A stretch of DNA of 64,000 bases from Mactra antiquata (taxonomy: Eukaryota), in the NCBI GenBank assembly GCA_047288015.1, contig CM103819.1:32689354-32753353 (forward strand), written 5' to 3'. Each line of letters opens with the position of its first letter. Position 1 is the first letter of the stretch. The notes beneath the pieces are model-generated. The model searched no databases, was not told the DNA's origin, and saw only the letters and a program-made list of their open reading frames with translations. The position numbers and the translations under genes are program-made. Shown here one piece after another: positions 14,207-61,402 of the stretch.

Positions 14207-14500
14207 GGGTTTAACGCCGTAGCAACACATTGTATAGGTCATATCACGGCGGTCAGTCAACCTACTCACCGTTCCTGGAAAGGCTAAATCTCTGGATTTA
14301 GCTGTTAATCAGTTACTAGGCGCATACTTTCGTCAGTAACTGACAACTGCCCTACATGATTTGGAATCAGTGGTAGGAAGGAGAATGGCCGTAGAAATAA
14401 TTTCATGACCAAGCTCCACAAAAGTATGCCCTGCCCGGGGATCGAACCCACAACTCCTCTATCAGTAGACTTGTGTGCTACTGACTGAGCTAGCCGGGCG
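14207..14500 (-). mobile_element. SINE family A copy
   Basis: Reverse complement of the 19209-19505 unit (..GGGGATCGAACCCACAACTCC..CTGAGCTAGCCGGGCGGG). Confidence 0.7.
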
Positions 14501-14607
14501 GGTAGTTTCTGTAATATGCACTTACCTAAATTCTGTAATGTGCAATATGATTGAATAAAAATTGGCCACCAATTATGAGAATCGATTCCATTCAGACAGC
14601 CACATGT

Positions 14608-19208: not shown

Positions 19209-19505
19209 AGGTACCCACCTGGCTAGCTCAGTCAGTAGCGCACAAGTTTACTGATTGAGGGGTCGTGGGTTCGATCCCCGGGCAAGGCATACTTTTGTGA
19301 AGCTTTATCATGAAATAATTTCTACATCCATTCTCCCTCCTACAACTGATTCTAAATCATGTAGGGCAGTTGTCAGTCACTGACGGAAGTAAGCACCTAA
19401 TAACTGGTTAACAGCTAAATCCAGAGATTTAGCCTTTCCAGGAACGGTGAGTAGGTTGACTGACCGCCGTGATATGACCTATACAATGTGTTGCTATGGT
19501 GTTTC
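19209..19505 (+). mobile_element. SINE family A (tRNA-Lys-like head GGCTAGCTCAGTCAGTAGCGCAC..GGTTCGATCCCCGGG; tail ..GTGTTGCTATGGTGTT)
   Basis: tRNA-like A/B-box region followed by a ~200-bp body. Other copies at 2326-2590(-), 4470-4700(-, partial), 8213-8520(-), 11326-11400(+, 3' fragment with poly-A), 14207-14500(-), 15305-15560(-), 56108-56390(+). Confidence 0.7.
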
Positions 19506-19703
19506 AGTTCATTGGTTTATTGGATCATTTCATGAAGTTCTTCTGCAGCATAGATACAAATCAACAAACAAATGCATCACCACATACTCCCTATCAGAAC
19601 ATTAGGGCTCTGACATCAAGCTTAAAATATCAAGCATTGTCTTGAAGTTACATAATCTCATGCCATTATAACATTAACACAGTCCAGAATACGTTTGCAA
19701 ATA

Positions 19704-20125
19704 CAGAAATCTTGCAAACTTACTTTTTTCATTTTTGATCCGATTTCTTTCAATTTTTTAATAAATATAGATCTACATATGGGCATTACACCAGTAAATT
19801 TTCAGCCACATATCTTAACTGGAAGTATGAAAAGAAATGAGTCAAAGTCAAAATTCCCATGGGAATTGGCATTTTCCCATTGGAAAATTCCATCCCCATG
19901 GGAATTTCGTGGGACTATCATGGGAATTCTCTCCCATTCTCAGAAATGGGAGAAAATACCCATTTTTATAAAGAAACTGAAACTAACTTTTAATTTCTTT
20001 GTAAAAAATGGGTATTTTCTCCCATTTCTGTTAAGTGTTATGCCCAAATGTAGATCTATATTTATTGAAAATTTGAAAGAAATCGGATCAAAAATGTAAA
20101 AAGTAAGTTTGCAAGATTTCTGGAT
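19704..20125. mobile_element. Foldback/MITE-like element with ~75-bp terminal inverted repeats and an internal cluster of TTCCCATGGGAA-type palindromes, in a PARP4 intron
   Basis: 19705-19780 is the reverse complement of 20045-20125 (AGAAATCTTGCAAACTTACTTTTT.CATTTTTGATCCGATTTCTTTCAA..TTT.AATAAATATAGATCTACAT). The track ORF 19695..20099 spans it and is spurious. Confidence 0.65.
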
Positions 20126-20410
20126 TTTGTGTTCATTATATTTTTGATTTTTGTATTTTTTCTACACACTTTTTCTGTCATAGACTTAATATCATTATTC
20201 TGCAAGAACATTTCCATATTGATTATAAGGCATACTGTACAAACACCAGGCTGATGGTGAAAACGACATAACATTAGAAAACATAGTTCTCACACATAGC
20301 AAAAAATTTATATTTCAAAATCAAATCTCATCAATTTAACTAATATTTTTTATATATAATGTGAAATATACTCAATAGAACTCGGCAAAAATTTTAATCA
20401 TAGTCCATAC

Positions 20411-27362: not shown

Positions 27363-28073
27363 TACAGTTGAATTAAGATTTTAAGAAATGTGATTTTTCG
27401 AAATTCGGCGAAATTTGACATAGATCTGCAGTCCAAACATTTGCTCCTATACATTTAATGTTAAATCACGCAATTATTCAAAACGCCATTTCTCGAAATT
27501 TGGGCAAATTCGACAACTTTTCGTAGTCTGCCGCACATAAAATTAACAACCAGAAATTAAACATGATTTTTCAAAATTAGTGTCTAATCACGAGTAGTTC
27601 ACACCTCCAATTGTCTATCTTTACAAAGTCAATTAACTTTACTCACAATTGTTCGACAGCTTATTAATGCGTGTTTTTCACACCCTGTATTCGATTCTCC
27701 AAACTTGCTTACGTAAATTGATCATTTTATGTAACATATTGTAAATCAGTTTAACTTCTTTATTAATTCTGCCATTGCCGATCCCCAGCTTGAGTGACAA
27801 AAGGACGGATTTAAAACCAAGTCAAAATTAAAATCAATGATGATATCAATAAAATGTCTATTTGTACATAATGAATTTCTGTTATTATGTAAATCAACAA
27901 CGATAGAAAAAGGACAACTCTGCGATCATTACTCAGGGTAACTATCACGACGCTGTGATTTTATGCCAAACATTGAATTTTCCGCGATATGTCAATTCAC
28001 AAGTTTTCGAAATCGCGATTTTTCAAAGTTTTGGCCAGTTCGAAGCCAATTCGAAAAATCTTAATTCAACTGT
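27363..28073. mobile_element. MITE (~710 bp) with TIRs CAGTTGAATTAAGATTTT and TA TSD (Tc1/mariner-type), in a PARP4 intron
   Basis: TA|CAGTTGAATTAAGATTTT at the left, AAAATCTTAATTCAACTG|TA at the right. Internal direct repeats TTTCGAAATT(C/T)GGCGAAATTTG / TTCGAAATTTGGGCAAATTCG. Confidence 0.65.
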
Positions 28074-32133: not shown

Positions 32134-32262
32134 CTTTTTTGTTACAATGTATGAAACAATTCCTCCATTTGATGTTATATCCTTCCTTAACTGACTCTTG
32201 TCTTTAAATTTCATAGATGTAGTCAAGTCTGGAACAATCAGTAGTCCTTCAAAGACCGCCAT
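32134..32262 (-). CDS. PARP4: PARP4-like exon 1 (coding part): Met start, BRCT N-terminus (MAVFEGLLIVPDLTTSMKFKDKSQLRKDITSNGGIVSYIVTKK)
   Basis: ATG at 32262 (minus), 43 codons, donor AAG|GTAGGT at 32133. Resembles human PARP4 N-terminus (..KKKLQTDIKENGGKFSFSLNPQ). An acceptor-like TTTTGTTTTAG lies immediately 5' of the ATG, suggesting an upstream 5'UTR exon. Confidence 0.6.
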
Positions 32263-33674
32263 CTTGAATGATCTAAAACAAAAATAAGTGGTTATCATAA
32301 TTTTATAGCTTCAATAACAAAATTAAATATTTGTCACTATTTATGTTTTAAACATAGCCCTACCTAAGTTCACATGGCAAAACAAACTATAATTGTTCAA
32401 TTGCACTGCAAACAAACTAATGCAGTATGTACACCAAACGTGCTAGTCACGCCTTTCTGCATATACATGTATAAAATTAGTTCGAGGAACGGCTGACATT
32501 TGCACTGTTCAACATTTTGACAAACTGGTACTATGACAAAACCTCTGACAACCCTAAATTCACCCATAACTCACCTCATTGATTCCATGGTAAAGAAACT
32601 TCGTACTAATAGCTGTATTCTGGTGGACCAGGAAGAGGGCTTAAGAATGATTGATGATGATCTAATGAAGTAAAATGAACGACAATCGTCATAAATCGTA
32701 TTTTATAAGTTACCTGTCAAATTAAATTTTCACAAGTTCTTCACTTTGTCACTCCAGAAAATTGCATCTAATGGTAAAAGTGGCAGGCAAAGAATATGAC
32801 TAATACACATAAATATCTTAAATGAGTGTTACTAAAATTATAAATGACAAAAACAACCTTCTTCCGTAATGTAAACAGTAAACAAGTAAAAACGGTTTTG
32901 GTTAAAATACAGTTTTCCGTACTCACAATGCGGAAAATACCGAATGACAACCTTTAGCTAAACCGAACAAGCGCCAGTTTGACGTTGACTGGGGTGAGGC
33001 AATTGTTAATTATTGCTATCCCAATTGACTCAATTATTCGGCAACGCTGAATATTGTTACACGATCATATGCAGCGTAAGATTATTTTCTTATTTTGCAT
33101 GCTCAATACGGAAAGCAGGCTTGCAAATATGCGATAAGTCAATGCAATAAAGCATAATCATGCAGTGGTTGGTATTGATTGGTATCAAAGATGTCCTAAT
33201 TCCTATTATTATTTGAAATTATTTATTTTGTTTATTAATTTCTGTACCCCACCCACTCCAACTGCGTTGTCAAATGTTATTTGCCTAAGTCTGTGTAAAA
33301 TATTTCACCCTTTCCTGAATATATACACGTATGGAAAAACATCCAGAACATGGTGTGAAATTTCAAGTGAAATGATTGGGGTCGGGACATGTGATCCCCT
33401 GGAAAAGTGACCCCGGGACGACTGATCCCATAAGCAGGGACAACTGATCCCATAGACAACTGATCCTGTAATATATATTTTCAGTTATTAAAACAACATT
33501 TTAATATTAAATGAAAAAAAATTAAACGTATGGATCGAGATACAGTTTGGAAGATTTTAATGAATTAAAAATGAATTTTTACAAAATTTCACAAACTTGA
33601 TTATGTACATAGTAGTCGGCTTTATGTTGACAGGGGAATTTTAACAATGACATGCGAGTGCCATAATACATGTA

Positions 33675-36600
33675 CAGTACTCGGATCGTGCAAGTTGTCA
33701 TACGGAACGGACGATACACGCATCAAATTCACGATACACGATTATGATACACGCTAAACGCGATTGTTCGGATTCCTCGGCTTTTTTCACCTGTCGAAAA
33801 CGTTTATTCGACGATGACTTATACATTTTATGCGTCACGGATGTAAATTAAAAACCCAAGATTAATTTTTATTTTTAACACCTAAACTGTCGAATCTGTG
33901 TTGAATAATATTTCATTAAAGATCATTGGAAGGGTGTAAAAAATATCAAAAAAACTATTAAAATGCATAGATAAGGGTTCAATTAAATGGTTTTCGAAAA
34001 AAGCTAAGAAATATGTCCACCCGTTGGTTTAAAAAACGCCTCCAAAACCTGATCAATCATGCTATTTTGCTTGAAATTTCTGCCGCTAGGTGGCGCCGCT
34101 ATTATTAGCGATGACGTAGATCCTACCGTTTAATCAATAACGATGAACTTCTGCGAGCAATATAACGATATAAATGCATTACTTTTTGTGACAAAATGAA
34201 CCGAATTTTGCGTATTTTTTATAGGGAATAGTGGTGACGATATTGTTAAATGGTCGATAATGTTGTAGCGTCGATTTAGCGTCTTATTTAATGATTAGTT
34301 CTATCCTAATTGTAGTTTGAACCCTAACTTCGTGCTAATTATTTTACCAGGCATTGGTTTGAACATTTGATCAACACAGCAGAATTATAAAAATAGTAGG
34401 TATTCTTAGGAAACAAAAAAGAAAAATATTTTGTCAATTTAACCATTCGTCTTTGATATTGCCTTAAAATATCCATGAATTGACAAAATCGATAATATTC
34501 GTACAAAAAGCACGGTAGAAAAAAATGCGTCTCTGAGACGGTGTATTTCTACTACAAATAGCCTTCGATGAATTGCACAGTTTTATGATGGTGATTCGTA
34601 AAATGTGTTAAGAATATATTTTCACTGGGTTATACTAATCACGTATATTGTTTGACCTAGTAGTTTTATCTTACCGCTTGTCGTATGTCAAAATGTGTAC
34701 TAAAAACGCCGACAGGAAATGGTGGTCAATATCACACGTGAGGGTGGTACACAGATTGTCACGTAGTAATTAATTTCACTATCAAGATTAAATCATAACT
34801 TAATGTACATATATAAACCGTGGACACCCTTATATAGGGTCCTTGTATAAACACAGCAATCAGTCAATCGAAACAATGCTAGTGTCATGGTGTTTTACCA
34901 GATATAACGGCCTTGTGCACTAACAATGAATTGATTGACAATTAATGGGCGGAGTTAACAAATTATAAAAGCGTCCAATCAGATGAAATGATATTATTAA
35001 ATAGTAACGCCGATAGCAAATTTATAATGTAATAATTCTATCAACAGTTTGAAAATACATGTGTCGCTGAATTCGGCACTTGATTTAAGCCGCACTTAAT
35101 TTATGTCGCATGCCACTTGCCACTGACGAAACCTAGTTGTTTGTTTGTCAGTTCACGGACCCTATATAAACCTCAGGGTCAGTTATAAAGTTTGCAATCG
35201 TTTTCAAACTGTTTTATTTTATAGTAATGTTCTTATGATTTGTAAATAAATTTCAGACGTTTATTTAAATAGATGGATAAGTGATCGAAACTAATTTTGA
35301 ATATATTACGACAGTATAATCATGTCAGGGATTTTATATAACATCCATGAACCATGTCTACTTTCAACTTGTACTTTTATTCTTCCATACATAATTAACA
35401 TGGTTCTAATTCAACTTATATAACTTCAGGTCAAGTAAAATACATAAATGCGAAATACATGCAATCACTGGTGCATAAACTTGTTAATAATTACTGATTG
35501 ACATCAGCGGAAATTGGTGACATCCGGACATTTATTACTATACATAAAGATAAAATCTGTTGTACAATATTTGCCGCTGTGAAATCAATATTGACCACGG
35601 GGGGGGGGGGGGGGGGGACTTTTTAACTTGCTTATTATAGATTAATGTACCATTATACAAAATTGATTATATTTTAATCCATTCGATGATTGATGTGCAA
35701 GTGGTTTGTTATTTGTTTGCATCATAAATGTTGAAACTTTGTGACCAGCGTGGGACATTATTAATGTTATTTTTGTGCAATTAAAGTCGTTAAACACGGC
35801 ATGCGTGATTAAATGTTGAAAATATACAGTTTACTTTTTAATCTGTTGAAGAAAAAACATTGTTATAAAACTGCATATGATCATAATTAAACGAAGTAAA
35901 ATAGACGGCAACATTGACAGAGATGCATTTTATCTTCAATACGGTAGGATCTACGTCATCAGGTCACGTGACCCGCTTTCGCTGTACATTCTTATCTGTG
36001 CTATGTAAAGTCGTTTTTTGCAATAACGGTACATTTTGGGACAAAATTAGTTACACCATGTAATTGTTAGCCCCAGATTCTATTTATATGGAAAAAATGA
36101 TGGCTAGCCTTCCCATGACCTTTAAGTTTAATTACTTGTCCCGTTTAAGTATTGTATTTATAGTACTGACAGTTAATTTTAGTTTGTTTACCGATTTTTC
36201 GACTTTTAACATAACTGTTTTAGTGGTTCAAAATATAGGAATAAAACTTTTTTCAGAGGGTACGACATAAATTAATGATCATTAAATATCAGTTGTCTTT
36301 ACCCTTTATTTCAACCAACCTTGCATAGCATTGTGCATATTAATTAATCGATACAGCATCAAGACAAAATTATACACGTATGACGTCACGCATCCTGGGT
36401 CAGTAGATGTGTTGAAAGTAGACTGGAGTCACAAAGTCTAGGTCACTTGTGCTTTGTTTTCATAACTGACGAATATACAACCCGATTTTCGGAAAATACA
36501 CAGTGTTACTAGGGATAGATCTTTCCAAAATCTCACTCACGAAACCATGTAATTGACGAGCATAACAGACGATTTAACACAAATTTTCGGCTTGAATCGA

Positions 36601-36948
36601 GTACGATTATTATTGATATAAAACTCAATAACCACAGACCTGGAAATATATCAAATTTAATTGATAGCCATGAAATAATTAACTATGATCTTACTTGTTT
36701 ATAAATCTAGCTATGTCTGAGTATTTGACGCAAACACGGTTGATTTATCTCGTACACACGATACACGATAGAAAATACGTAATCACAATATCTCGGACCA
36801 TCTTTTTAAGGTGAAATTTCACGATGAACGATACACGATGCACGATTCAAATACACGGTACGAACGATACACACACGTTGTGAATGATACACGCACGATG
36901 CACGCACGATACACGCAAATTTCGGTAACTTGCACGATCCGAGTACTG
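33675..36948. mobile_element. Non-autonomous Tc1/mariner-like DNA transposon (3274 bp). 22-bp perfect TIRs CAGTACTCGGATCGTGCAAGTT, flanked by TA on both sides, subterminal CGATACACG direct repeats; no transposase ORF
   Basis: Left end TA|CAGTACTCGGATCGTGCAAGTT at 33675. Right end AACTTGCACGATCCGAGTACTG|TA ending at 36948. More than 10 copies of CGATACACG/CGTGTATCG within ~250 bp of each end. Largest internal ORF is 68 aa. Confidence 0.75.
34111..35960. repeat. Nested 20-bp inverted-repeat pair (GATGACGTAGATCCTACCGT / ACGGTAGGATCTACGTCATC) bounding 1.85 kb inside the Tc1-like element. Contains a G19 homopolymer (35599-35617), palindromes and TATA/CCAAT/GC-box motifs
   Basis: Exact reverse complements at 34111-34130 and 35941-35960. 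GGTCACGTGACC palindrome at 35961-35972. TGACGTCA at ~36381. GGGCGG/TATAAAAG/CCAATCAG at ~34955-34995. CTATATAAACC repeated at ~34810 and ~35158. Confidence 0.6.
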
Positions 36949-37901
36949 TACCCAACACCTTTTCGTATTATTTTTTTACAAATCAACTTGTGGTGGCCTC
37001 GAGTGTGTGCATCTTTGCTTTATTGGTACTTGTCTCTTCTTCCCTCACTTGAAAGTTGAAGATCGTCTTTCAAAATTCTCTTGGCTGCAAGTGGTGAACT
37101 GATAAAATAGTGCCATAACTCTGTATATAATCTGAATATTTAGCAATTTCATGAACTACATGCTATCAAATTTATGTGTGTTGAAGTTTTATTTATTTTT
37201 GTTTTCATTATTCAAATTTTGATGGTGTTTTTAAAAGTAATGAAATCAAAATTTCAAATATACTAAGAGGGGGTCCTATTCCGTCATCCTTAGGAACTAA
37301 ATAAAATAATTAATAATAATGAACACTTAATTGTACACAAAGACAACATTTATTTACTGTGTAAATCATTCATTAAAACATTGTTCCATCAACTTTCAAC
37401 AAGAAACATAAGCAATCATAGTGTAAAGGTCAAACATATAAATGCAGACAATGGTCTCTAGCATGCCAATATTTTGTCACAGCAGAATAAAACTTAAATT
37501 GTATTCACTTGTTCGATGAAAAGCATCCTTTTTTACCATGATGAGAAATATTTAGGTATATTTTAAAAATCATACTTGCACAACAATTTAAAAACAAAGT
37601 CGTCAAAAATCATCCGTTTGCAATGGTGACACATATGCCATAAGTATTAAAGTGTAACTGGTGTAAGTTGGCTCCACCCACAAGATAACTACGCCTAGTT
37701 GTTAGATATGAAAAAATGACAATCCATGTATTAAAATATGTTCCAGGTCTACTTCCTATGCAACAGTTAAATAGTTTGGCAGATGTATGCAGTATGCTAA
37801 GTTTTTGCTGAGGCGAGTCTGAACGAAATGTCTTTTTACTAATGTGAGTTTTACCCTAAGGCTTGTGAATATTTGTATTTGCTTTTTTACTTTGCAGAGT
37901 C

Positions 37902-37998
37902 ATGTGGGCCAATCAGTGGCAAGGTGGTGGTAATGCTGGAGGTGGTGGTGGTTGGCCAATGCAACCAGCAAATTTTCAAGGAATGGCAGCTGATCAAG
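37902..37998 (+). CDS. PNISR: PNISR-like exon 1, coding part (MWANQWQGGGNAGGGGGWPMQPANFQGMAADQ)
   Basis: ATG at 37902 lies 4 nt after an acceptor TTTGCAG (exon starts 37898), implying an upstream 5'UTR exon. Donor CAAG|GTATGA at 37999. Resembles human PNISR MWDQGGQPWQQWP N-terminus. Confidence 0.65.
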
Positions 37999-55300: not shown

Positions 55301-55525
55301 TTCAACAACGGACGACTAAAGGTGGTAAATAAACACCAAACATAATAAAGCCATGTACTTATTTTTTTGGTAGAGTTAAATATTTGATCTTTGATTGCAA
55401 TCGGCTTGATATACCTTATACAGGGTTCTGTGAAACAATAGCTGAAGGTTTAAATACCGCCATTGAATTAATGTTTAATACTTTAAATAGAAGCAAAGTT
55501 AGATTGTATCATGTAAGGTTTATTA

Positions 55526-55701
55526 CAGTGAAACCTGAGAAGTACGAACCTTGAGACATCTGAAGTCTCAGAATTCTGAACGATTTTCTCAGTCTGATTT
55601 TTAACATCCGATTGCAAAATAAACTTGAGAAATCCGGAAAACTGTGAAGTTCGAACTTATTGTCAGGTGTCAAAGGTGTTCGGATTTCTCGGGTTACACT
55701 G
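55526..55701. mobile_element. 176-bp MITE, TIR CAGTG(A/T)AACCTGAGA, TA TSD (copy 1)
   Basis: TA|CAGTGAAACCTGAGAAG ... CGGGTTACACTG|TA. Related copies at 57530 and 59631. Confidence 0.65.
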
Positions 55702-56107
55702 TATCAATGTAAACAAGTCAAGGGTAGCATATTTTTAATATCAAATACCTGCATTTAGACTTGAATACATATCATCGTGCACCTTTATTGTTTTAAGCAT
55801 AAAAACATGAGATAAGAGGTTTTTATAGGACGCCGGAAAAGGAAACACGCTATAAGATTTAAAAAAGAAATGGTTAATATACAATACATGCTCAAGCTTA
55901 GATCGACTATGCAGAGGTTCATGTCTGATTTTCAAATGATTTCAAAATATCATTAAAATTGTATTAAGCGCATGTTAAAATTAAAACGTATGACAATATG
56001 AATAAAATGATAAAATTTAATCTTTTGTGTGGTAAGACTCTTTGAATACACCCACCGTCATGTTTCCCCGGGAACAGCTAGTTTATTTTAGGTCCTCCAG
56101 TGTTTAT

Positions 56108-56390: not shown

Positions 56391-57529
56391 CCAGAAGAGC
56401 GTCGTAAAGCTCTAAAAAACAAACTAAAGTGCTCCAGTACATTCAATAAAATGGGTATAATAGACACATACATGTTTGACGTATAGATTTATAGTTTGAT
56501 ATATTGACAGGAGCTGACTTTAGCTTCAACCCGTCAATATGTATTTTGAAATCTTTTGGTGGTATGGTCGATATAGGACAGGTGTGAAATCACTTCATTT
56601 GTTATCTATACATGTGCAGTCATGTCTTTCAGTAAATCTTGTCAATGATGTATTGATTCTTTTGTTTTTTTACGTAAATCTCACTTTGTTGTCAATGTAC
56701 CTCTTCAAATCATTGTCATTTGGTGGAGGAGCCTAAGTATACATAGTTGCAGTTCCTCATGTAACGTGCTAGTGAGGAGAAGAAACGACTCTTGTATAAA
56801 TTGATGATCAATAATATCTAAGCACCATCGCCTGTACTCTTCCACTATGGAGAGATAAAATATTTGGTGGTCAGCTGACCGTAGTTCGGAACCCATCCAA
56901 AGCAAGATGGTGTATACAGAATACTTGCTAGTCTATTTTCTACTAACCTGTTTAGCTCAATTGTAAAACAATTTCTTGCCACTTATATTAATAAAGCTCG
57001 AGTCTGCTACCTGATCCCTCAATACTGAGTTATCTGGATAAAGTTTCTTGCTGAAGGGGATACAGGGATAACGATGTGGGTTTGGAAAGAATTCAAAGTA
57101 ACTGGGTGTTGCCCATCGTAACTGCTCGATCACGATCATTCTTTTTGAAAACTATTCATTTTATTGACGATAAGTTATGACTCAAGTGAAAAGAGAAATT
57201 ATATGTTCTTTTCCGTTCCGTTCCGGTGCATTGAAATAATATGTTGCAACATTCTTAAAGCAACTTGTACCACGATGAGACATTATCAAAATATTTGATT
57301 TAAAAATCTATCAAAGTTTGATATACATCGTTAACATTTATACATACAGACACCATGGGGTCTTTAAAGCAATATAATCATGTATGATTGATTGGACATG
57401 AAGTATCATTAAATCCTTTAGTTGTCTGTAAAGTGAGGTAGTTTAAACTGTTGTTGAATAGATTATATCATTTATTACTGCCTGAAAACCATCAATAGAT
57501 TTAAGATCATAAACTAACTGGGTGATATA

Positions 57530-57705
57530 CAGTGTAACCTGAGATTCAGACCTTGAGGAATCCGGATTCCTCTGATCTTCGAACGATTTTCTCGGCCCAA
57601 CTTCGGATATGAGAACATGAACAATGCTCTGAGAAATCCGGAAACGTGTAAATTTCGTACATGTAGTTTGGCCCAGAAGGTGTGCGGATGTCTCAGGTTA
57701 CACTG
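57530..57705. mobile_element. 176-bp MITE of the same family, TIR CAGTGTAACCTGAGA, TA TSD (copy 2)
   Basis: TA|CAGTGTAACCTGAGATTC ... GTCTCAGGTTACACTG|TA. Internal TCGAACGATTTTCTC ... GAGAAATCCGGAAA shared with copy 1. Confidence 0.7.
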
Positions 57706-59299
57706 TATAATGGTAAGCTCAAGTAAAAATTTAGATTTAATATGCTTGAATTTTGTAGTTTTAAGATTTTTTTAAAGAGTGGAACTACTAGTTTGGCCAA
57801 TTCATTCATGATGCCACATAGGCGATCGACATGACTTTTTGTCTACAACAATTCAATTTATCTTATCCTTTTGATTTGCTTTATTTTAAATTTAAAAAAT
57901 AACAAAATAATCTTGGAGCGAGCGACGAACGGGTGCAAAACCTTTAATCTAGTTCGCAAGTGTCAGTTTAATTAACAACGGGAAATAGCTCTTTGAACAG
58001 TCATTACATTGGCTCTATTAGACTTTTCACATTGACCATAAACAAGGAATCAGTTAACCACAATGTATAGTAACATAATCCGGCCTCAGATGTTTCAAGC
58101 TGTCTCACGGTACATATTAACAAGCTATAAAAGCTTATCATAAAACTCAGGTATCGATATCAACTAGTATAGTAAACAGGCATGAAACGTTCTTGGTAAC
58201 ATTCAGAAGTACATGTTTCTCATTGAATTCCAGACTTTACGTTAATTACTGTTTATTTAGTGAATGTTATATCTAACGGTAGAATTTCAATACATTTGTT
58301 ACAATAGATTTCCGTTTGCCTTACCTCCTGTGTGTTCCTGGAACATTGAACTTTTTTAGCTATTCGATCTCATTGTCGTGACCATTTGTCTCTGACATAC
58401 AACATTTGACCGTTTTAGTTACTTAATATAGGAAATTGTCTCATTTTTATTTACCATCTAAACAGGAATACATTTGTTTAATGTTGCGTTCTCTACCATG
58501 ACCAATCATACTGTTTAACTAAATATATTTACCACAACGGTTCCAAGAAAATAAACAAAAGTAAAAAAATATTCATAAAATATTCAATACCGGTTTTATC
58601 TATTCTCAACAGTCCTAATATACACAGAGTAGGTCTATTTCATTTCGTCAGATCAATTAGACTAAAGTACATGATCTTCCATGGTTGGAAGATCTGATAT
58701 TAAGCACCTATTACAAAGTATATTAATAGAAATTGGAATTTACAAATTTAAAAGTCAGACAATCAGAGATTGCACCCCATCTACGATTTGGCTTAATGTT
58801 AAAATTAAATTTCTGCCGTGCAAGGCTCTGACTGGTTAACTTGACTTTCAGTAGAAGACATTCCTATGTATGACCTCTTAACCCTCGGACCGTAGCGGTA
58901 TATGAGGGTATGGTTTGAATCAGATTGATCGTCTGAACATCTTGTCATAAAACTAGCAAATTCATAAAAAAGACACAATACACGAAGATTTTTATCGTAA
59001 GGACGTATGGTTTGCCTCTTGTTATTTATCGCATAAATGTCACGGCCTCATTAACAATGTGGCATAACTTTAATCAAGTAATTATGTCTGAAGATTGGTT
59101 GAATTATTTCACATAACGTAACAATGACCTAGTACACTAATTTTACCGCAAATTACAGTTAAGTCGAACACTTGAAAGATCTTAAAAAAGAAAACAAACT
59201 TAAGAAATAATCTAATGAGGTATAGTTATCAAATACTATTCCTTATACGTGCTACCTGTACCTCGTGGGTGTTTTACTATGTGCCAAGTTAATCTATTT

Positions 59300-59585: not shown

Positions 59586-59630
59586 AATCAATCAAGCAAT
59601 CATGTCTTTATAAAGTCAATGAAGTGTATA

Positions 59631-59777
59631 CACTGTAACCTGCGAAATCAGGAATCCACTGAATTCTTGACGAAGTTTGCTCCTAATGCGGGCTTTCAAA
59701 TGCAAATGAACTTACGAAACTTGTAAAATCAGAGCTTTCTGGTCAGTCCAAAGTGTCCAAATTCTCAGGTTTCATTG
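59631..59777. mobile_element. Diverged/truncated copy of the same MITE family
   Basis: CACTGTAACCTGCGAAATCAGG ... TCTCAGGTTTCATTG, flanked by TA. A further internal fragment lies at ~61860-61990. Confidence 0.45.
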
Positions 59778-60256
59778 TATTGAAGTTGATACAGTTGGGA
59801 CATTTATTCTTGTCTTTGATTCGTTTTGAATCAAGAAAGTCTAATTCAGTTGATACAGTACATGAAGTCAGCCCACACCTTTAACCATATTTTCTCACAT
59901 TTACTTTACAAGAAAGTATTAATGAAGGTATAAGATGTAGTATTACTGGTCAATCTAATTTTTGTATTTAATTTCATGGATTTATGATTTATAACAAATG
60001 ATTAATTTATTCTGTAATGTAGCTTAATCCAAGATTTAGAACTGTAGCCAAATTTTGTTAATAATTTACGCTTGATTACTACTGCTGGTGTTAACTCAAT
60101 TAATTCTGTAGGTTCATGCAAATGTCATATTTGTTATTATACAATGACTAGCACTAAGCTAAACAACCTTGAAAATAATGAAACAAATTTTAAAAAATGA
60201 AGTAAAAAATCACTAGTTGTAGTCAATTTATTATTAATATTTTCCAACATTTTCAG

Positions 60257-61402
60257 GTGATGACCAAAAGTCAAGAAACTGGACTTTCAGTAGACAATAT
60301 GCCGGAAATTCCCGACTACTCGGCGAACTATGACGGATACGCTCGACTATCACCGGCATTCATCGAGCCAGTCTTCGAAGATCCATACCGATGTCCGGTA
60401 TCCACTCCAACCGTCTCCCGGCAACACAGTTCCACTAATTTCCGCCATACACAGGGACCATTTATTGCTTTCACTAGCTTGAACAGAAGTCTTCAAATAC
60501 CCAATCATATTTCAACACCAAAACATTCTAAATATAGAAATGTCAAAACGAGGCCGGTCGCCAAACCACAGAAAAAGAATTTTGATTGTTATTTTGTTAA
60601 AAATGTTGACAAAAATATTCACATAGACGCACAGACGCATGGATCAACATGGCTGAATACATTATGTGCCCAACCAGTTGACGAAATATTCGGTAAATAT
60701 AAACGCAAGTCTGAAGTGAATTATCTCTCCCGCCAGACGCCGAGAAGCAAGAATTCAACACCTGGCGAGAAAGCGTTGATGTCTGCATGGTCTAGTAATG
60801 CTTCGAATAGAGGAACCCCTTCTGTTATGTCGAAATCAAATAAATCTATTCCTTTGACAGCGTCCAGGAAAAGTTCTAAATCAGTTTTTGTTGAACCAAA
60901 TGTTCGCGCTGTCGGATTTGACCCCGATCCAGATAGGTTTGTAAATAACATTGGGTTTGCACTAGTTCCGGTGCCTTCCCCTACTGGTTATGACACTGAT
61001 GATGCAACATTTACCATGACGTCATCAAGAGATTCTCCTGTGTTTCAAAGGGTGTTCAGAAATAATTATACTAATCAACCAAATGACGCTGTAATAAACA
61101 ATACATATTACGAACCATACCAGCGAGACAAAAGATTTCCGGAAATTCGTCGCCGGAAGTCGGCATTGTCTCCGACGCGCAGGCGCATTCCACAGGAAGC
61201 CAAAGAAGCGGTTTCAACTTCGGTCACCAACCTTGTCAAACAGGATCTGGAGGAAAGCCCTATACACATCGTTACAATTGGACAAGCATTCCGAAACAGC
61301 CCGGAACCGATAAAGAGCACCCTACCCGTTTCACGACAGTGTTCATATCGTCTGCCTAAATCGCTTTCAATGTCACTTCCGGAATTGCACGGAGCTGGTT
61401 GA
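60257..61402 (+). CDS. Uncharacterised 381-aa single-exon ORF (MMTKSQETGLSVDNMPEIPDYSANYDGYARLSP...), Ser/Thr/Pro/Arg/Asn-rich, probably intrinsically disordered
   Basis: Longest uninterrupted ORF outside the two annotated genes. Noticeably CpG/GC-richer than its surroundings. An acceptor-like TTTTCCAACATTTTCAG lies directly upstream (60240-60256). Basic clusters RRRKSALSPTRRRIP. I recognise no homology. Confidence 0.45.
   Translation: MMTKSQETGLSVDNMPEIPDYSANYDGYARLSPAFIEPVFEDPYRCPVSTPTVSRQHSSTNFRHTQGPFIAFTSLNRSLQIPNHISTPKHSKYRNVKTRPVAKPQKKNFDCYFVKNVDKNIHIDAQTHGSTWLNTLCAQPVDEIFGKYKRKSEVNYLSRQTPRSKNSTPGEKALMSAWSSNASNRGTPSVMSKSNKSIPLTASRKSSKSVFVEPNVRAVGFDPDPDRFVNNIGFALVPVPSPTGYDTDDATFTMTSSRDSPVFQRVFRNNYTNQPNDAVINNTYYEPYQRDKRFPEIRRRKSALSPTRRRIPQEAKEAVSTSVTNLVKQDLEESPIHIVTIGQAFRNSPEPIKSTLPVSRQCSYRLPKSLSMSLPELHGAG

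Follow-up and report, generated by a model that had tools for sequence, protein, structure and literature searches.

Positions 33675 to 36948 of a 64,000-nucleotide stretch of the Mactra antiquata genome (contig CM103819.1; below, the window) hold a 3,274-bp segment that we consider to be, with reasonable probability, a single insertion of a non-autonomous class II transposon of the IS630/Tc1/mariner group, possibly one served in trans by a pogo-like transposase. It is intergenic, between a PARP4-like and a PNISR-like gene. The segment begins and ends with a perfect 22-nt terminal inverted repeat (TIR), CAGTACTCGGATCGTGCAAGTT, which starts with CAGT. A TA dinucleotide stands at each outer edge, arrays of a short motif with a fixed orientation lie just inside the ends, and the DNA between them has no coding capacity. 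We assign the element to the Tc1/mariner group because of its TA flanks, its CAGT...ACTG termini, its 22-nt TIR, and the lack of an open reading frame (ORF). The group is defined by a target-site duplication (TSD) of TA, short TIRs (mostly ~20–30 bp), and a DDE/D transposase (PMC7325037).

The left TIR (33675–33696, plus strand) is complementary at 22 of 22 positions to the right TIR (36927–36948, minus strand), which reads AACTTGCACGATCCGAGTACTG on the plus strand. The two ends thus match the original prediction, which had described perfect 22-bp TIRs beginning with CAGT and bordered by TA on each side. The TA at 33673–33674 and the TA at 36949–36950, both read from the sequence, are the two copies of a putative 2-bp TSD; the predicted empty site is GCCATAATACATG-TA-CCCAACACCTTTTCG. 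When the TA and one further base are counted, the complementarity of the ends extends to 25 nt (GTA...TAC). With the base composition of the window, perfect inverted repeats no more than 8 kb apart are expected ~3e-4 times (22 nt) or ~7e-6 times (25 nt) in the 64 kb, and the probability of finding TA at both flanks by chance is ~0.009. Among all sites in the window that match the 22-nt TIR with up to three mismatches, 33675–33696 and 36927–36948 form the sole pair.

Other placements of the boundaries were also considered. No direct duplication of 2–9 nt was found at any alternative boundary, and only TA fits; insertions of hAT, PIF, or other elements with different TSD lengths were rejected for want of a matching direct duplication. 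Word-9 and sensitive blastn searches combined with local alignment within the window revealed no inverted similarity beyond the TIRs. Since inverted similarity ends at the TIR, the repeats do not mark the border of a more extensive inversion or inverted duplication. A larger local segmental inversion, which had been named in advance as an observation that would overturn the prediction, was looked for by these means and rejected.

Inside the TIRs, the two ends carry clustered copies of a short motif, CGATACACG. Exact copies number two at the left end and three at the right; with up to one mismatch allowed, there are three on the left (33712–33753) and seven on the right (36759–36915). The original prediction had counted at least ten per end and had included a reverse-complement form. 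Neither statement holds: all copies at both ends lie on the plus strand and are direct, not inverted, and the reverse-complement form, CGTGTATCG, occurs nowhere. The subterminal clustering itself is real, as is evident from the related word GATRCACG, all nine window copies of which fall in the two ends (~0.015 expected there), no farther than 80 nt from the left terminus or 190 nt from the right one. The left subterminal block (33702–33771, plus strand) contains three of these (33713, 33733, and 33746), together with two exact CACGAT copies (33730 and 33737). The right subterminal array (36754–36925, plus strand) contains the other six, the seven CGATACACG copies, and seven exact copies of CACGAT (36757–36905), and is partly tandem, with periods of 7, 11, and 20. 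Local alignment of ~70-nt blocks from the two ends (33702–33771 and 36854–36925) gave ~70% identity in direct orientation.

CACGAT, the core of these repeats, corresponds to the TIR's inner half. When the TIR was divided into its 17 hexamers, only those at positions 11–13 (ATCGTG, TCGTGC, and CGTGCA) were found to recur subterminally. At the right end, they are present in seven, three, and two copies, respectively, all in the orientation of the TIR, and every CACGAT of the right array is co-oriented with the CACGAT of the adjacent TIR. The left end has two hexamer copies in the opposite orientation, the first of them 34 nt from the TIR; CACGAT of the left block is reversed relative to the ATCGTG of its neighboring TIR and separated from it. 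An inner copy of the entire 22-mer is absent from both ends at up to seven mismatches, and the best inner match has eight, a value within the background of shuffled sequence.

The original prediction had compared these ends with the IR/DR (inverted repeat/direct repeat) ends of Sleeping Beauty-type elements. In the IR/DR arrangement, each inverted repeat contains two transposase-binding sites as direct repeats (PMC5224488). Like Sleeping Beauty, the element has a TA target and, at each end, multiple motifs that are candidates for transposase binding. However, Sleeping Beauty has long, mirror-symmetric inverted repeats with two full sites each, whereas here the TIR is 22 nt long, an inner full copy is lacking (an IR/DR inner repeat was rejected on the eight mismatches of the best candidate), and the motifs are 6–9 nt units, three at one end and seven at the other, that point in the same absolute direction at both. 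Neither two direct sites within a long repeat nor mirror symmetry between the ends is thus present, and the IR/DR description does not apply.

A closer parallel is provided by the pogo-type Lemi1 transposase and the Arabidopsis Emigrant element, a miniature inverted-repeat transposable element (MITE) whose layout was established by electrophoretic mobility shift assay and DNase footprinting (PMC1636448). In Emigrant, the motifs at one end adjoin the TIR and share its orientation, and those at the other lie 22 bp from it and are reversed; Lemi1 transposase binds these subterminal motifs cooperatively (PMC1636448). The ends of the Mactra element have this architecture: the TIR is short, its inner (3') half is what the subterminal motifs reiterate, and these motifs stand beside the TIR in its own orientation at one end but are reversed and spaced from it at the other. 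Like Emigrant, the element is non-autonomous, and its movement would depend on a transposase supplied in trans. The two differ in that ours comes from a bivalve and not a plant, has ~7 units at one end compared with two in Emigrant, and is 3.27 kb long with an unrelated interior, whereas the Emigrant MITE is a few hundred bp. The likeness is one of layout, with no sequence similarity claimed, and binding of the motifs in the present case is presumed by analogy.

Compared with generic non-autonomous Tc1/mariner (ITm) elements and MITEs, the segment shares the TA flanks, the CAGT...ACTG termini, a TIR within the usual 20–30 nt, and the absence of an ORF. Most such elements, in contrast, lack arrays, with a single binding site at each end, and are much shorter than 3.27 kb; MITEs are usually below 800 bp, a size that the 3,274-bp element exceeds. 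The TIR length is that of the group, and the TA at both edges, in one copy and palindromic, is consistent with the duplication that the group produces rather than proof of it.

As a rule, hAT-, CACTA-, and P-like families carry arrays of short subterminal motifs. This raises the question of whether the segment could be a TIR transposon of another superfamily (one with 2-bp TSDs, such as ISL2EU, or a hAT-, CACTA-, or P-like element), in which TA would be a coincidence or a target preference. Like hAT and CACTA elements, the segment has many short motifs, differing in number between its two ends, in the outermost ~200 nt of each, and dense, unequal arrays of 6–9-nt units are more typical of those elements than of most Tc1/mariner members; assignment to a superfamily is, moreover, unprovable without a transposase. 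Nevertheless, the target duplications of hAT and CACTA elements are 8 bp or 3 bp long and their termini differ, and neither feature is found here: no 3-bp, 8-bp, or other duplication is present at any boundary, only TA. The combination of CAGT...ACTG, TA, and a 22-nt TIR fits Tc1/pogo, and the subterminal motif repeats the inner half of the TIR, as it does in the pogo-type Lemi1/Emigrant system. The subterminal motif arrays of these other families are listed also in the Lemi1 study (PMC1636448). We regard membership of another superfamily as rather improbable.

The interior of the element (33697–36926) is non-coding. Its longest ORF is 68 aa from start to stop (69 aa from stop to stop), with no ORF above 69 codons, and a Pfam scan of the element in six frames with stops masked returned no family at E ≤ 1. 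A decayed transposase was therefore rejected, and the description of the element as transposase-less with no ORF beyond 68 aa stands. No exact match to the 68-aa ORF was found in protein collections. RNA genes were rejected as a cargo after Rfam gave no match in the element at E ≤ 1 and ARAGORN found no tRNA. The interior has no similarity to the remainder of the window. Nested, TSD-flanked elements were considered as a cause of the 3.27-kb size and rejected: the interior yielded no inverted-repeat pair accompanied by a target duplication that would account for it.

One perfect internal inverted repeat of 20 nt, GATGACGTAGATCCTACCGT, is present, with its left arm at 34110–34129 (plus strand) and its right arm at 35941–35960 (minus strand). 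With 1811 nt between the arms, such a pair is beyond chance (~4e-3 expected in the window), and it has no TSD, extension, or further copy in the window; the 20-mer had no match in viral contigs. Directly after the right arm lies the palindrome GGTCACGTGACC (35962–35973), which is E-box/CLEAR-like, and a CRE-like sequence, TGACGTCA, is found ~400 nt further on (36377–36390). Both are possible candidate regulatory motifs borne by the element, as judged by their resemblance to such sites. A run of 19 consecutive G at 35599–35617, also inside the element, could be a simple homopolymer, a possible G-quadruplex former, or a weak spot of sequencing or assembly.

The base composition sets the element apart from its surroundings. 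Its CpG observed/expected ratio is 1.40 (1.18 for the interior), compared with a mean of 0.49 (standard deviation, 0.25; maximum, 1.02) for other 3.27-kb stretches, so that CpG depletion is weaker here than in any of them; across the right boundary, the ratio falls from 2.01 to 0.37. The high CpG content would suit a unit that has had a separate and probably brief history here; it fits a young or unmethylated insert and, equally, an unmethylated promoter region.

A CpG-rich interior that is unrelated to any transposase would also be understandable if two separate end fragments or miniature elements, lying in opposite orientation, bracketed host promoter DNA that never moved as a unit. The interior resembles an unmethylated promoter between divergent genes, the subterminal blocks are direct repeats and not mirror images, and small TA-flanked elements are abundant in the window, all of which suit that arrangement. 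Each fragment would, however, require a separate partner end close by, which the window lacks at up to three mismatches; both 22-mers are perfect, with TA exactly at both outer boundaries, and the asymmetry of the ends matches a known single-element architecture. We think it improbable that the ends have separate origins.

It is likewise unlikely, if marginally less so, that the segment is not mobile DNA at all. The 25-nt inverted repeat would then have arisen locally, for instance through template switching or as a pair of sites bound by protein, at the limits of a CpG-island-like bidirectional promoter, and the CACGAT arrays would be a degenerate microsatellite. This would suit the observation of a single copy, the tandem nature of the arrays with their three periods, and the position of the region between two probable 5' exons, with promoter-like CpG content and E-box/CRE-like palindromes. 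Against this stands the expectation of ~7e-6 for a perfect 25-nt inverted repeat with arms 3.2 kb apart. We know of no local process that yields CAGT termini, TA flanks, and arrays of the inner half of a TIR confined to both ends; in combination, termini, flanks, and arrays are the textbook anatomy of a Tc1/pogo-type element.

As the original prediction had stated, the element lies between two genes. That to its left is PARP4-like and on the minus strand, and that to its right is PNISR-like and on the plus strand. Exon translations of the left gene match mollusc PARP4 with its BRCT, PARP, VIT, and VWA domains. Its ATG is at 32262 (minus strand), with a splice acceptor before the ATG, and the element starts 1412 nt upstream. 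The right gene was recognized by the PNISR Pfam family PF15996 (E = 6.9e-38); its ATG, at 37902, directly follows an acceptor at 37896–37897, and the element ends 953 nt upstream. The element accordingly makes up 3.27 kb of the ~5.6 kb between the PARP4-like and PNISR-like start codons. Untranslated first exons probably lie near 32927–33000 and 37000–37090, as placed from splice-site-like motifs alone. A protein search with the RS-rich exon of PNISR gave no match at E ≤ 1e-10, probably as low-complexity candidates swamped the search, and an 82-aa ORF at the junction had no word-sharing candidate in protein collections. Three tandem-like copies of a ACTGATCCCATA-type unit were noted in the intergenic DNA some 200 nt beyond the element's left end (33400–33470).

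The proteins place the host among the heterodont bivalves: for a 380-aa ORF (60260–61399), the nearest sequences are those of Mercenaria (60% identity), Ruditapes (58%), Dreissena (54%), and Mya (53%). An exact look-up of this ORF (as 380 or 381 aa) in protein collections found no entry. Protein identity with the closest annotated relatives is only ~50–60%. In Mytilus trossulus, PNISR is absent from the 10 kb upstream of PARP4, and no homology to the element was detected there. Since Mytilus trossulus lacks a nearby PNISR, the head-to-head PARP4-PNISR arrangement is not common to all bivalves.

To look for relatives of the element, fragments of the TIR were compared with sequence collections. 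A 20-mer had no match in viral contigs or JGI metagenomes. An 18-mer matched six bacterial sequences in prokaryotic genomes, a number at or below chance expectation, and the 18-mer together with TA matched twice in metagenomes. Both of the latter were rejected as chance matches: one falls in a eukaryotic large subunit ribosomal RNA gene, and the other in a contig of microbial appearance, within an ORF of 303 aa. Nor do the supplements of the Tc1/mariner survey cited above (PMC7325037) contain the TIR.

The window contains other elements of related appearance. Three TA-flanked miniature elements with CAGTG[A/T]AACCTGAGA ends are present at 55524–55703, 57528–57707, and 59629–59779; they are ~150–180 nt long and clustered within 4.3 kb, and their six end matches compare with 0.02 expected. 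By their ends, they are a separate family of Tc1/mariner-like MITEs. A TA-flanked inverted pair with CAGTTGAATTAAG at 27363 and 28077 lies in an intron of the PARP4-like gene; its repeats (CAGTTGAATTAAGATTTT...; 31 nt, 87% identity) span ~715 nt from end to end and have a Tc1-like terminus. The presence of these other TA-flanked CAGT-type elements in the window indicates that TA-targeting elements have been active, and are common, in this genome. Introns of the PARP4-like gene contain two further inverted pairs, one of 292 nt (91% identity; 14213–14504 and 19212–19503, 4.7 kb apart) and one of 93 nt (94% identity; 19699–20127, 243 nt apart), which are probably further copies of repeat families or foldback-like elements.

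Several observations weigh against our interpretation of the segment as one Tc1/mariner-group insertion. One copy is at hand, the TIR does not recur in the 64-kb window, and viral contigs, JGI metagenomes, and prokaryotic genomes contain no genuine counterpart of it; in the full-text literature, a TIR 10-mer matched unrelated primers only, and 14-mers matched nothing. As TA is a palindrome and one copy was examined, a TSD is inseparable from an extended inverted repeat. Of the original claim of a Tc1/mariner-type insertion with an intact TSD, what stands is the TA at both flanks and the TIRs; that the TA is a duplication is unprovable from a single copy. Neither a transposase nor an empty site was found, and superfamily membership is read solely from the anatomy of the ends. 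An unrelated non-coding interior of 3.27 kb is large for a non-autonomous Tc1/mariner derivative. Finally, the high CpG content may equally be that of an unmethylated promoter extending as far as the first exon of PNISR. The CpG step on the right coincides with the probable position of that exon, and for this reason it is not decisive for a foreign insert.

If the segment is a Tc1/mariner-group insertion, as we favor, its movement can be pictured as follows. A DDE/D transposase encoded elsewhere in the genome would bind the 22-nt TIRs through helix-turn-helix domains; a pogo-type enzyme would combine a CENP-B-like helix-turn-helix with DDD. The same transposase would also bind the (G/A)CACGAT arrays, probably cooperatively, and would meet units that repeat the inner half of the TIR differently at the two ends: two or three on the left, reversed and set apart, and about seven on the right, co-oriented with the TIR. 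It would then pair the two unequal ends, excise the element, and reinsert it at a TA, which would be duplicated in the process.

A bolder proposal is that the element is the first member to be noticed of an undescribed pogo/Lemi1-type family of animals, here a bivalve, whose transposase would read the polar arrays, and that its CpG-rich cargo, with the internal 20-nt inverted repeat and the E-box/CRE-like palindromes, is a promoter or regulatory module delivered by a transposon to the PARP4-PNISR pair. We consider this a long shot. For a specialist, neither the layout of the ends nor the enlarged spacer is surprising, and the element is an ordinary kind of genome parasite. If other copies confirm it, it would add one more non-autonomous Tc1/mariner-group family to the catalogue of bivalve repeats, and would provide an animal example of the asymmetric reiteration of the inner half of the TIR seen in Lemi1/Emigrant-type elements. 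Such an asymmetric layout bears on how transposases distinguish the two ends of an element and on which non-autonomous elements can be moved by a given transposase. At this locus, the spacer between two divergent housekeeping-type genes is more than twice as long with the insertion as it would be without it, and an empty allele, if one is present as a polymorphism, would be a natural experiment on promoter architecture.

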